NCBI GenBank assembly: GCA_017559525.1
Contig: JAFYRI010000009.1
Span: 8,443 to 72,442, forward strand
DNA: 64,000 bases
Reading direction: 5' to 3'
DNA from: Alphaproteobacteria bacterium
GTDB taxonomy: Bacteria; Pseudomonadota; Alphaproteobacteria; CAAHEQ01; UBA3637
This document shows, one piece after another, positions 60,577-63,906 of the stretch (position 1 is its first letter; each line of letters begins with the position of its first letter). Below the pieces are notes generated by a model, which made no database searches, was not told the origin of the DNA, and worked only from the letters and a program-made list of their open reading frames with translations. Made by a program: the position numbers and the translations under genes.

Positions 60577-61701
60577 ATGAAGAATTGGAAAAGGGTTTTA
60601 TTTGTTGGTTTTGTGTGGGGAGTAATCTTCTTCCTTTGGTGGATGGCAGGTTTTTATTCACGGAATTGGAATTTTAATTTATTTTCTTCGGAATCGTGGT
60701 CTTATTTGTATCAGGAATTCATGGATGGTTGGGTAATTTCTGCTGCAAGTGATTGGATTTTTGTGATTGTATTGTTGTTGTCTTTGCCTGTTTTTATTAT
60801 TGGTTGGAATATTGTTTTAAAAATTAAATGGCGTCAATTGGTTGTAAACACCATGAAAAAAATGTGGTATGCACTGCGTCGTTTATGGCATTCTGTGTTT
60901 GGTTCTAAGATTATTGTTGAACCAAAAAAAGTAAAATATATGAAGAAAAAATCTCATAAAAAGCAACGCCCAGCACCATTATATACTTCTGCACGTGCGA
61001 TGGAACGTAATGCTCAAAGGCGTTCTGAAATGTCATCTTATTCTGCTCAATCGACTTCAGTGTCTGGTAATGCATCTGGTATGGGGGCAGGAGTGATGGC
61101 GCCGTTATCTGAAAGTATGCAATCGCGTAATGATGATTTTCCTTCTTTCTTGGATGATGCGGATTTCGCGAATATGTCTTTAGATGATATTCAGTTGCCA
61201 ACACGTGAGCCATTGAATGAAGATATCCCAGATATTTTGATTAAAAAAGGATATCAAGTTATTGCTAATCCTCAAATTGGCGCGATGGCAGTTGATTTTG
61301 TTATTGTTGAAGCGCATAAAATTTATGTGTTGCTTTCTGATAATGATGTTGGAGATTGGTTGGCTGATGAAGAACGTTTTAATGGTGAAGATCCGTTGTG
61401 GTTTTCAGAAAGCTCCCATCGTGTTTCACCAATTTTTACAATGAATACAGAAATAAAACCTTTTTCTAATCGTTTAAAAACTGCTGGTATAGCTCATGAA
61501 GTGGTACCTGTTTTAGTTGTTAAAGAAGGAACGATTATTAATGCGGAAGATATGCAAAAAACTTGGGATGATATGGGTATAATTGTTTGTCGTACGCATT
61601 TAGGAGGGCCTGATGAATTGCCATCTGTGGCTCAGGCTATGCCGGATGTATCTGAAGCTGCTGATATATCAGATATTGAAAAAATTAGAAATGCTTTTTA
61701 G
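60577..61701 (+). CDS. 2-TM inner-membrane protein with low-complexity Ser-rich linker and C-terminal NERD/PD-(D/E)xK-like domain, encoded immediately upstream of the T4CP (IcmP/DotM-like position)
   Basis: TM1 VLFVGFVWGVIFFLWWMAGF. TM2 WIFVIVLLLSLPVFIIGWNIV. C-terminal GYQVIANPQIGAMAVDFVIVEAHKIYVLL...SPIFTMNTEI...HEVVPVLVV resembles the NERD D..E.K core. Confidence 0.4.
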   Translation: MKNWKRVLFVGFVWGVIFFLWWMAGFYSRNWNFNLFSSESWSYLYQEFMDGWVISAASDWIFVIVLLLSLPVFIIGWNIVLKIKWRQLVVNTMKKMWYALRRLWHSVFGSKIIVEPKKVKYMKKKSHKKQRPAPLYTSARAMERNAQRRSEMSSYSAQSTSVSGNASGMGAGVMAPLSESMQSRNDDFPSFLDDADFANMSLDDIQLPTREPLNEDIPDILIKKGYQVIANPQIGAMAVDFVIVEAHKIYVLLSDNDVGDWLADEERFNGEDPLWFSESSHRVSPIFTMNTEIKPFSNRLKTAGIAHEVVPVLVVKEGTIINAEDMQKTWDDMGIIVCRTHLGGPDELPSVAQAMPDVSEAADISDIEKIRNAF

Positions 61702-61719
61702 TTAAGAGGGAAAAATCAA

Positions 61720-63906
61720 ATGGCATTTAAACGTGACGCTGCTTATGAAGAACAAGGTAAATTTATTGCATGGATTTTTTGGACCGTTGTGTGGTCTCTT
61801 TTCTCCTGTTGGGGATTGTCTTTGTTGATGCCTGCTCTAAGTTTATGGATAAAAGAGGGGATTAGTTTTAATACATTAAGTGAGGCGTGTTCTTTTTGGA
61901 AAAAGGCGATTGGTGTTAATTTTGTGCCTTTAATTAAAATGTATGTTGAATGGTTTTCTTCATTTTTCAGCCAAGCTGAACCTAAAGCGCATATGTATTT
62001 AGTTTGGGTGCCGTTTATAACTCTAATTGGTGTTTTCTTGGTCGGTATTTTTACAAATCCCTATAAATATATGCCGAATGTCTTTGGTGGTGGGCGTGAA
62101 GCTGAATATGCCGATATTAAGAAAATGGGTTTATTTGATGGCTTTGTTATTGTGTTGGGACGTTTTAAAGGAAAGTTACTTAAAATGCCGGAAACACTCT
62201 CAGCTTTGGTTGTTGCTCCTCCGGGAACCGGTAAAACAGCTGGTGTTGTTATTCCAACAATTTTGGAATCTCCGGGATTAAGTTTGATCGTAAACGACCC
62301 TAAGCCTGAGCTATGTTACAATACAACGGGGTATCGCGCAACAATTGGACCGGTATTTGTAATTAACTGGGGTGCTGAAGATGAGCCAGAAAAAGGGTTG
62401 TATTATCCTGCATGGAATCCATTGTCTGCTAGTTGTTTGCCACCTCCGGGAAAAGAACGCGATACTTACATCGAATCTATGGTAAATGTATTGGTGGAAG
62501 AACCAAAGGGAGGCGCAGATCCTCACTGGGCTAAAACTGGTCGAAATGCGATGGTTGGGTTGTTGCAATTTATTTCCAGTAAATGTGAACGTGCTCGTGC
62601 CAATGATTATTTTGTCGCTCGTTTAATGGATGACGCTTTTGATCAAGAAGATGCAGATGTTTTAAAAACATACTATGCGGAAATGGGGGATGCTAGTGCA
62701 CGTATTGCTATGGATGCATTGGAACAAGGTAATTTAACTTCAGATAATTATGTTCCTGTTGGTACATGGGATGGTTTACCACAAATGTGGCATGGGAAAG
62801 AGCCATGTATTGCGATGGTGCTTGATTGGCGAAATGATATGCAAATGCGTATTGCTGCCGATTTAAAACGTCGAACAGATGCTGGTGATCAAGCGGCGGC
62901 ATTTGCTGATCCTGAACGTGAATTGTATGAAAATGCTGTGGCTGAATGCGAACGTTTTGGGTATTCTCGTCGTGCTGTGATTGAACTTAACCAATTAGCG
63001 GCAACACCGGATAAAGAGCGTGGTTCTATTATGTCAACAGCTTTAACAGGGGTTGGTATCTTTAAAAACTCTGCTGTACGTGATAGAACGAAGTTTAGTG
63101 ACTTAACATTTGCAGATATGCGAGGTATGCGTGACCCAATTACAGGGGAAATGAAACCAATTTCCGTATATTTATCAGTTAACCAAGTGGATGCTAGAAC
63201 ACTTAACGTGATTACAGGTATTTTTGTGGAATTAATGAGTTCTTATCTTATTTCTAATCCACCAAACTTTGTGAATAATAAAGGTGAAAAGGCTGGTCCA
63301 TTCCCCGTTTTATTTGTGCTTGATGAGTTCCCTCAAATGCCAAAGTTGGCGGCTGTTAAGGATGGGCCTGCTGTAGGACGTGGTCAAAAAGTATCTTATT
63401 TATTGATTGGACAAGATTTAGGTCAGATTTCTGGTCAGTATGGTAAAGATGACTTAGAAACCATTATTACGACAACAGCTGCTAAAGTTATTTTATCCCA
63501 AAATAACGAACAAACGGCTGAACGTTTCAGTAAAATGATTGGTTCTAAAACAATTGAGGTCGCTAGTTCTTCTAGAACGGAAGGGTTCTCACAACAAACA
63601 AATCCATTCGCGGCTAATATTTCCAGATCATTACAAAGCTCTAATGTTGTTGGTACATCCGATATGATGAGTTTGGATATGTTGAAACAATATGTATTGT
63701 TCCAAGGATATTTAAACAGACCAATTAAGGCAGATGCTCCTCGTTGGTATTTGGATAAGAAAATGAAGAAAAAATGTGCAATGCCAACAGCTCCGTTTGT
63801 TCCGTATTGGATTGTGGCCCAACGTGAGGAAACAGATTTACAAGCTCTTAAATCCTTAATGCAAGGGGAATTAGCTGAATTTGATGAAGAATTTGAAGGT
63901 GCCTAA
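61720..63906 (+). CDS. Type IV secretion/conjugation coupling protein (VirD4/TraG/TraD/DotL family ATPase)
   Basis: Two N-terminal TM helices. Walker A LVVAPPGTGKTAGVVIPTIL. The SLIVNDPKPEL and ...VLFVLDEFPQMP...GRGQKVSYLLIGQDLGQ Walker B/T4CP signatures. 728 aa. Confidence 0.8.
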   Translation: MAFKRDAAYEEQGKFIAWIFWTVVWSLFSCWGLSLLMPALSLWIKEGISFNTLSEACSFWKKAIGVNFVPLIKMYVEWFSSFFSQAEPKAHMYLVWVPFITLIGVFLVGIFTNPYKYMPNVFGGGREAEYADIKKMGLFDGFVIVLGRFKGKLLKMPETLSALVVAPPGTGKTAGVVIPTILESPGLSLIVNDPKPELCYNTTGYRATIGPVFVINWGAEDEPEKGLYYPAWNPLSASCLPPPGKERDTYIESMVNVLVEEPKGGADPHWAKTGRNAMVGLLQFISSKCERARANDYFVARLMDDAFDQEDADVLKTYYAEMGDASARIAMDALEQGNLTSDNYVPVGTWDGLPQMWHGKEPCIAMVLDWRNDMQMRIAADLKRRTDAGDQAAAFADPERELYENAVAECERFGYSRRAVIELNQLAATPDKERGSIMSTALTGVGIFKNSAVRDRTKFSDLTFADMRGMRDPITGEMKPISVYLSVNQVDARTLNVITGIFVELMSSYLISNPPNFVNNKGEKAGPFPVLFVLDEFPQMPKLAAVKDGPAVGRGQKVSYLLIGQDLGQISGQYGKDDLETIITTTAAKVILSQNNEQTAERFSKMIGSKTIEVASSSRTEGFSQQTNPFAANISRSLQSSNVVGTSDMMSLDMLKQYVLFQGYLNRPIKADAPRWYLDKKMKKKCAMPTAPFVPYWIVAQREETDLQALKSLMQGELAEFDEEFEGA

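Follow-up and report, generated by a model that had tools for sequence, protein, structure and literature searches.

To our knowledge, apart from the XVIPCD domain of killing type IV secretion systems (T4SSs), little is known about how the coupling protein VirD4 chooses its substrates. Killing systems of the VirB/VirD4 type deliver DNases of the HNH superfamily, in which an N-terminal nuclease is followed by a C-terminal, VirD4-binding XVIPCD (PMC11253643, PMC13600162). Nuclease toxins of related kinds are known from other settings: YhhZ has been classed as an Hcp-family effector of type VI secretion systems (T6SSs) with a His-Me finger domain (PMC5714182), and yokI-yokJ, which encodes an HNH-containing LXG toxin and its partner, has been shown experimentally to be a DNase toxin-antitoxin pair (PMC8321402). 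In the 64-kb stretch of alphaproteobacterial DNA analysed here (contig JAFYRI010000009.1; the whole stretch is called the window below), the gene for a putative VirD4-type coupling protein (T4CP) and the gene that precedes it are the front half of a four-gene operon, the last two genes of which descend from just such a toxin-immunity cassette. This operon is probably the coupling-protein module of a chromosomal VirB/VirD4 (type IVA) T4SS with lineage-specific partners.

The four genes, numbered here in the order of transcription, are separated by 18, 2 and 2 nt, preceded by one promoter-like site and followed by one hairpin terminator, and we therefore regard them as one operon. A GAGGG ribosome-binding site lies inside the 18-nt spacer between gene 1 and the T4CP gene. 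An earlier reading of the window, made from the letters alone (the sequence-only reading), had described these first two open reading frames (ORFs), of 374 and 728 aa, with this spacing, and they are present as claimed. Gene 3 runs off the end of the window and was followed, with gene 4, on a 116-kb ENA metagenome contig (L001) reached by exact-protein look-up, where gene 4 is followed by a convergent anmK gene; a window position equals the L001 position plus 51719. All coordinates are collected in Table 1.

Judged by its sequence affinities, gene 2 encodes a VirD4-type (type IVA) coupling protein, not a DotL. The protein matches the Pfam families T4SS-DNA_transf (E 1.1e-54, 186.5 bits against a cutoff of 20.1), TraG-D_C (4e-22) and TrwB_AAD_bind (3e-20), begins with a transmembrane (TM) hairpin (hydrophobic segments 15-37 and 94-112) and carries the motifs APPGTGKT (166), DEF (535), GRGQK (553) and LIGQDLGQ (562), all of them invariant in 33 homologues, so that the hallmarks attributed to it from the letters alone were confirmed. 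Its top NCBIfam models are VirD4-like (CD1115 family), VirD4 and IncP TraG; since its scores fall far under the equivalog cutoffs (118 bits against 728 for VirD4 PRK13897, 141 against 250 for the VirD4-like CD1115 family), it belongs to a divergent subfamily. Among its plasmid matches, five genes of alphaproteobacterial megaplasmids stand out (27-35% identity, E 1e-58 to 1e-106, compared with about 1e-14 for ordinary TraG), and the matches in Erythrobacter aureus and Microvirga sp. end virB4...virB8-virB9-virB10-virB11-virD4 clusters. The operon T4CP thus shares with VirD4 its three Pfam families, TM hairpin, Walker A and B motifs and relatives that follow virB11, but it is just 32-35% identical to the nearest plasmid VirD4 and is mostly not adjacent to virB11. 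Sequence searches of the PDB with the T4CP or its family profile returned TrwB only (E 0.15), with DotL chains absent at E≤10; for all four operon proteins, such searches, whether run with single proteins or with family profiles, were unproductive.

Neither the window nor the next 10 kb contains a virB gene, and the observation that the T4CP is not embedded in a virB or tra cluster therefore stands for the window; yet in a relative, L020, virB9-virB10-virB11 lie directly 5' of the DnaJ/ribbon-helix-helix (RHH) genes, gene 1 and the T4CP gene. This was seen when plasmid VirB proteins were used as tblastn probes against the window and 87 loci (1.49 Mb), which returned VirB4 in L059, two VirB8 paralogues and VirB9 in L079, and VirB9, VirB10 and VirB11 in L020, with Pfam support for each (CagE_TrbE_VirB, VirB8 twice, CagX, TrbI/VirB10 and T2SSE/VirB11). 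The VirB9 (CagX) proteins of L020 and L079 end in a SPOR (peptidoglycan-binding) domain, and in L079 virB9 accompanies a tandem duplication of virB8. The VirB10 of L020 is a giant of 2,282 aa with eleven beta-flower repeats ahead of its TrbI domain; such a protein is also encoded in L093, L096, L099, L101, L103, L105, L110, L111, L115 and L120, and sits between virB9 and virB11. A metagenome scan with the clade's VirB11 gave 29 loci (64-82% identity), with virB10 present wherever there is upstream sequence, and 13 of them have virB9 as well, usually with one or two copies of virB8. None of the metagenome VirB11 loci with downstream sequence has the T4CP operon within 10 kb after virB11. Because the virB clusters, virB4 and the T4CP operon are mostly found at separate loci, the T4SS of this clade is, as far as these loci tell, spread over at least three chromosomal sites: virB8-virB8-virB9-virB10-virB11, virB3/virB4 and the coupling operon. 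Scattered and duplicated virB genes presumably make it resemble the rvh system of the Rickettsiales, which we take to share with it a duplicated virB8, T4SS genes at several chromosomal sites and no relaxase in sight.

Gene 1 encodes a protein with two TM segments (residues 7-25 and 63-81); because its N-terminal tail is basic and 16 K/R fall within the 53 residues after the second segment, its C-terminal domain is placed in the cytoplasm, in agreement with the topology proposed earlier. The linker (residues ~85-205) is basic at first and then disordered. In an AlphaFold2 model made with 48 homologues, residues ~210-374 are modelled with high confidence (pLDDT >90), with disorder predicted for ~110-205, and the domain has the alpha/beta core fold common to restriction enzymes and Hjc, which places it in the PD-(D/E)xK superfamily by fold. 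The sequence-only reading had seen in it a NERD-like domain with the core VDFVIVEAHK. The restriction-endonuclease (REase)-like fold was upheld; the NERD assignment and the proposed core were not, as there is no Pfam match to NERD (PF08378) at E≤0.1, and E245 and K248 of that core vary among homologues. The invariant acidic residues are E215, D255, D264, E265, E271 and E278, no Lys is invariant, and the signature of the domain, WLADEE-x-F-N-x-E-x-PLWFSE-x-SH-x-x-SP ... IN-x-x-DM ... W, differs from those of NERD and other PD-(D/E)xK domains and lacks the canonical (D/E)xK with its conserved lysine.

The 860 homologues of gene 1 are nearly all unnamed proteins of uncultured Alphaproteobacteria, one of them bearing the NCBI name 'NERD domain-containing'. 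Gene 1 matches no Pfam or NCBIfam family above threshold (sub-threshold matches were to the MTES_1575 REase, E 0.07, and the N-terminal region of MAD6, E 0.027), and tblastn against plasmids gave no match. With the domain alone as query, an exhaustive search of 1.84 billion proteins returned 253 representative clusters only. Multi-AAA+ ATPases carry the same domain at their N-terminus, and one TPR-Roc-COR-TIR protein contains it internally (proteins of other architecture are P0410, P0444, P0462, P0463, P0472, P0474 and P0499, one of them from a Rikenellaceae metagenome-assembled genome, MAG), and across these architectures WLADEE-x-F-[ND]-x-E-x-PL[WY]FS...H..SP ... N..DM...W is nearly invariant and the D-x-E-x-K region is not conserved. 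No Pfam model covers it in the nine proteins scanned; this compact nuclease-fold domain, WLADEE...PLWFSE, is outside every Pfam model and undescribed.

Since genes 3 and 4 match the toxin domain and the immunity protein, respectively, of loci in B. subtilis and E. coli, they descend from a polymorphic-toxin cassette of an HNH nuclease and a SUKH immunity protein. Gene 3 has no Pfam family at E≤10. Homologues retrieved by protein search, 50-85% identical to it, share V-H-L-K-x-P...GG...N...P-x-H...I-H, a GSGGKNKQDRS block that is invariant and MPGR at the C-terminus, and the protein shows the beta-beta-alpha-metal motif, structural Asn, metal-ligand His and homology that mark members of the HNH/His-Me finger superfamily; Foldseek with the model of an 85%-identical homologue (P0121) found nothing significant. 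Gene 4 comes just under the cutoff of the NCBIfam YrhA family NF038335 (E 1.6e-14, 54.1 bits against 55) and matches Pfam SMI1_KNR4 (SUKH-1) weakly (E 0.097), and this family match and its place directly 3' of a toxin-domain gene put it among the SUKH/YrhA immunity proteins. Against plasmids, tblastn with gene 4 gave no match; with gene 3 it reached annotated HNH endonucleases, a type VII secretion system (T7SS) LXG polymorphic toxin and a pre-toxin-TG protein.

In B. subtilis the LXG toxin that matches gene 3 is followed by an annotated YrhA-family protein, with bsrG and yolD nearby. BLASTP aligned gene 3 with the C-terminal domain of this toxin at E 5e-14 and gene 4 with the YrhA-family protein at E 3e-9; from the SPbeta-like context we take the pair to be yokI/yokJ-like. 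The E. coli counterpart is a 392-aa Hcp-HNH protein whose C-terminal part is the same HNH domain; a SUKH-like ORF comes next, and the two are flanked by an acetyltransferase gene and by a small ORF and then ggt, a locus that we presume to be yhhZ-yrhA. Both operon proteins are thus homologous to those of the two cassettes and are encoded in matching order, 2 nt apart, but gene 3 lacks an Hcp or LXG trafficking domain and has instead a short conserved N-terminal motif, a variable linker, an extra C-terminal tail, H-[LIVM] in place of H-H, and a T4CP for company. The similar sizes of genes 3 and 4 had raised the idea that they correspond to DotN, IcmS or IcmW; it was dropped in view of their homology to a toxin and its immunity protein and of the absence of cysteine from gene 3.

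His-Me finger nucleases carry their catalytic general-base His at the end of the first beta-strand, often after a D/E/H metal ligand (PMC5714182). The gene 3 family has V-H-[LIVM]-K-x-P at this place in 69/69 members, where both toxin homologues have H-H. Colicin E7 also has H-H there. Given the gapless alignment with the toxin and a conserved Pro three residues on, the residue replaced in the gene 3 family appears to be the catalytic general-base His and the nuclease appears disarmed, a change that we take to correspond to the inactivating H545A in colicin E7 and H840A in Cas9. The rest of the site is retained: the Asn and the two helix His in 68/69 each, and the omega-loop Tyr in 66/69. The pattern may alternatively reflect a one-residue register shift, or the use of the omega-loop Tyr after the manner of PacI, in which a Tyr replaces the His (PMC5714182).

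The toxin homologues stop just past the PxPxGxxY strand, and gene 3 runs about 40 residues further. This tail has low confidence over most of its length in the P0121 model, the invariant GSGGKNKQDRS block included, and the last 35 aa of the family carry a mean net charge of +3.2. The C-terminus of the T4CP, conversely, is acidic (mean charge -6.7 over the last 30 aa, 36% D/E after the WIVAQR motif), and this acidic tail reaches 108 residues in some lineages; the T4CP of L073 carries a long poly-acidic one. The gene 3 tail is much shorter than XVIPCD regions (PMC11253643), and no XVIPCD-like or other Pfam domain was detected in gene 3, a comparison that was made through Pfam, not directly with XVIPCDs, and without a confirmed XVIPCD model in that library.

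A scan of one genome per species gave 381 matching stretches, and the locus counts below refer to the best 80 of them. These come almost entirely from alphaproteobacterial MAGs of gut and rumen (deer, sheep, yak, buffalo, rabbit, horse and human). Four bins (L012, L061, L069 and L081) are labelled Lactobacillales, Holdemanella or Limosilactobacillus (Firmicutes) yet carry the same alphaproteobacterial operon, and their labels likely reflect mis-binning or contamination. Gene 1 is present in 80/80 loci, the T4CP in 79/80 and genes 3 and 4 in 68/80, and gene order and strand are identical in every locus that holds all four (68/80). In most loci the genes overlap or are separated by a few nucleotides; the larger gaps of about 20 loci are due to an additional ORF or to the start codon chosen for extended gene 3 homologues. 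Relative to the window proteins, identity is 56-93% for the T4CP, 32-87% for gene 3, 26-88% for gene 4 and 29-72% for gene 1. The conservation of order and flanks argues for vertical inheritance, and the data as a whole indicate an operon that is chromosomal and under purifying selection, not a decaying mobile element.

Eleven of the 12 loci without genes 3 and 4 end inside or soon after the T4CP gene. The twelfth, L066, has sequence 3' of the T4CP yet lacks the HNH/SUKH pair; in its place are a 264-aa ORF, DNA methyltransferase-like by eye, and unrelated ORFs, and a paralogue of gene 1 reduced to the TM part lies upstream. In L073 a divergent paralogue of gene 1 stands directly 5' of gene 1, and the HNH homologue, of 354 aa, has a Pro/Gln-rich N-terminal extension. 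In L030 gene 1 and the T4CP are separated by an additional ORF of 145 aa, which looks by eye like a duplicate of the T4CP N-terminal membrane domain; similar gaps of about 470 nt occur in L036, L038, L045 and L052.

How the four proteins might work together can be pictured as follows. A VirD4 hexamer in the inner membrane would feed substrates into the VirB channel, with the two TM helices of the gene 1 protein anchoring that protein at its side; the strongly acidic, conserved REase-fold domain of the gene 1 protein would face the cytoplasm and act as an accessory or receptor subunit of VirD4. The gene 3 protein, held in check or chaperoned by its SUKH partner from gene 4, would dock through its basic tail on VirD4, whose own C-terminal tail is acidic, and would then serve either as a dedicated substrate for translocation or, domesticated and non-catalytic, as an adaptor. 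An effector-like layout, the retained metal site and the lack of the pair in L066 speak for cargo; the lost general base, strong conservation and single copy speak for domestication. A non-toxic, domesticated gene 3 is slightly favoured over an active DNase toxin, because the general-base His appears to be replaced in every member. We offer more tentatively, as a possible but doubtful extension, the idea that this type IVA T4CP acquired its own receptor complex, made of a non-canonical REase-fold anchor, a disabled HNH toxin and a SUKH protein, and so became an independent analogue of DotL-DotM and its adaptors. Any likeness to DotL-DotM(-DotN-IcmS-IcmW-LvgA) is in concept only, in that a T4CP is co-encoded with a membrane partner bearing a cytoplasmic domain and with small soluble partners; there is no similarity of sequence or fold, and the T4SS genes nearby belong to virB, not to dot/icm.

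The strongest rival is that gene 3 is an active DNase cargo, injected into competing gut bacteria or eukaryotic cells, with gene 4 as immunity and gene 1 as a loading aid. Much in the pair recalls the effectors and immunity proteins of the bacteria-killing X-T4SSs (X-Tfe/X-Tfi, for example TfdA and LtdD): homology to toxin/immunity pairs, an HNH/EndoVII-superfamily core with a C-terminal extension beside virD4, an immunity-type gene downstream, and a precedent for VirD4-dependent delivery of HNH-superfamily DNases (PMC11253643, PMC13600162). Its three His, Asn and omega-loop Tyr are conserved, PacI offers a precedent for a Tyr in place of the His (PMC5714182), and the pair is missing from L066, as cargo might be. 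However, the general-base position is hydrophobic in 69/69 members, the ~40-aa tail shows no detected XVIPCD-like domain, and gene 3 is a single, highly conserved gene that varies less than gene 1 and has one immunity gene and a fixed place in the virD4 operon, unlike the many variable X-Tfe effectors and fast-diversifying polymorphic toxins in general. We therefore consider active cargo unlikely, though it deserves serious attention. A role in DNA handling, with genes 1 and 3 as relaxase-like nickases or DNA binders that hand chromosomal or foreign DNA to VirD4 for release, uptake or transfer, would suit the ancestral function of T4CPs as DNA pumps, the two nuclease-fold partners flanking the T4CP, the REase-like fold of MOB_C-type relaxases and the RHH gene just 5' in 31/80 loci. 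Yet canonical catalytic residues are missing from both nuclease-fold partners, neither a HUH relaxase nor anything like an oriT was seen, and the RHH_4/DnaJ pair is absent from more than half of the loci, which makes DNA handling quite improbable.

A stand-alone defence or conflict system, in which a T4CP-like motor, nucleases and a SUKH regulator would act with no secretion channel, draws on the recurrence of the gene 1 domain in AAA+ and TPR-Roc-COR-TIR proteins and on weak matches to the MADS system (mad8, E 1e-4, over the T4CP Walker B region, and MAD6, E 0.027). No PADLOC family was significant and there was none for gene 1, the position on the chromosome is fixed, conservation is strong and neither patchy nor island-like, and virB genes adjoin the operon in L020, so that we regard this explanation as very unlikely. 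We give next to no credence to the two origins offered by the sequence-only reading, a DotM(IcmP)-DotL(IcmO) module of a type IVB system and the remnant of a conjugative element (a decaying integrative and conjugative element, ICE). The sizes do resemble those of DotM and DotL, and the 64-kb window holds no further T4SS gene; but neither protein matches DotL or DotM, the T4CP has its affinity with VirD4 proteins that follow virB11, and in relatives virB genes are its neighbours. A decaying ICE is contradicted by intact motifs, a T4CP that keeps 56-93% identity across 79 loci, a constant gene order, housekeeping flanks and uniform G+C. These comparisons leave a coupling-protein module of a chromosomal VirB/VirD4 system as the best explanation of the operon.

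Table 1. Positions of the operon, its signals and other features mentioned in the text (window coordinates unless a locus is named).
Feature	Position	Strand	Remark
Promoter-like site, TAGCCA-17-TATAAT	60510..60538	+	~40 nt 5' of gene 1; consensus match alone
Gene 1, 374-aa inner-membrane protein	60577..61701	+	
Gene 1 C-terminal domain (residues 205-374)	61189..61698	+	restriction-endonuclease-like fold
Gene 2, 728-aa putative VirD4-type coupling protein (T4CP)	61720..63906	+	
Gene 3, 220-aa HNH (His-Me finger) protein	63909..64000, then off the window; L001 12190-12852 (window-equivalent 63909-64571)	+	
Gene 4, 151-aa YrhA/SUKH protein	L001 12855-13310 (window-equivalent 64574-65029)		beyond the window
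Bidirectional hairpin terminator	L001 13462-13481		strong; 3' of gene 4, beyond the window
DnaJ-domain gene and RHH_4 gene	59111-60079	-, +	
107-aa ORF	60091-60414	-	between RHH_4 and gene 1
Four tandem HExxH paralogues	35562-39241		~290-307 aa
virB9 (CagX, SPOR)	L020 15-860		
Giant virB10	L020 879-7727		
DnaJ and RHH_4 genes	L020 8754-9714		between virB11 and gene 1
virB8-virB8-virB9	L079 2097-5317	-	
TM-only gene 1 paralogue	L066 9421-9921		
264-aa ORF and unrelated ORFs	L066 13588-16168		in place of HNH/SUKH
Divergent gene 1 paralogue	L073 8851-9957		
354-aa HNH homologue	L073 13548-14612		
145-aa extra ORF	L030 11249-11686		
T7-like prophage genes	L004 1-7927		outside the operon
Peptidase_S24 repressor-like gene	L004 8116-8751		after the prophage genes

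Promoter-like consensus sites show no enrichment in the region of the operon when it is compared with shuffled sequence. Otherwise the window is of housekeeping character (FliG, S1, SecA, PFOR, PEPCK, Dus, BamD, RecN, LigA, YdbH-like, ParE and L21/L27), with uniform G+C of ~0.36 and no T4SS, relaxase or integrase gene among its larger ORFs. A DnaJ-domain gene on the minus strand adjoins the operon on its 5' side in 38/80 loci and a plus-strand RHH_4 gene in 31/80; in L020 the two are wedged between virB11 and gene 1. The small ORF that separates RHH_4 from gene 1 has a hydrophobic N-terminus resembling a signal peptide and is found in the closest relatives only (5/80 loci). In L004, T7-like prophage genes (head-tail connector, capsid, nozzle and terminase) lie beside the DnaJ gene.

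Elsewhere in the window stands an array of four tandem paralogues with an HExxH motif, one of which matches SprT-like/DUF6782 metallopeptidase models at E ~1e-5, under their gathering scores; none of the four (4/4) has a hydrophobic N-terminal signal sequence apparent by eye. The suggestion that the coupling operon serves this array found no backing: when the motif of the gene 3 tail was sought throughout the window and L001, gene 3 itself was the only match, the four paralogues lack it, and nothing therefore ties the array to the T4CP operon.

The T4CP adds a new and divergent member to a known family, and the combination of four genes is undescribed in the libraries and literature that we searched: queries for T4CP with SUKH and for NERD with VirD4 led to no description of the operon, and the literature on this gut clade gave MAG catalogues only. 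We know of no VirD4 for which three co-transcribed partners of this kind have been described, and a VirD4 with three conserved ones across a whole lineage of gut and rumen Alphaproteobacteria, common though uncultured, is a testable candidate for a type IVA recruitment complex. A polymorphic-toxin cassette that is elsewhere fused to T6SS (Hcp) and T7SS (LXG) domains is here fixed beside a T4CP and apparently disarmed; if the receptor-complex interpretation were true, this would be the first case in which a secretion machine took in a toxin and its immunity protein as structural components. Finally, a scattered chromosomal T4SS with a VirB10 of the 2,000-residue class bears on the dealings of this clade with its neighbours or hosts.

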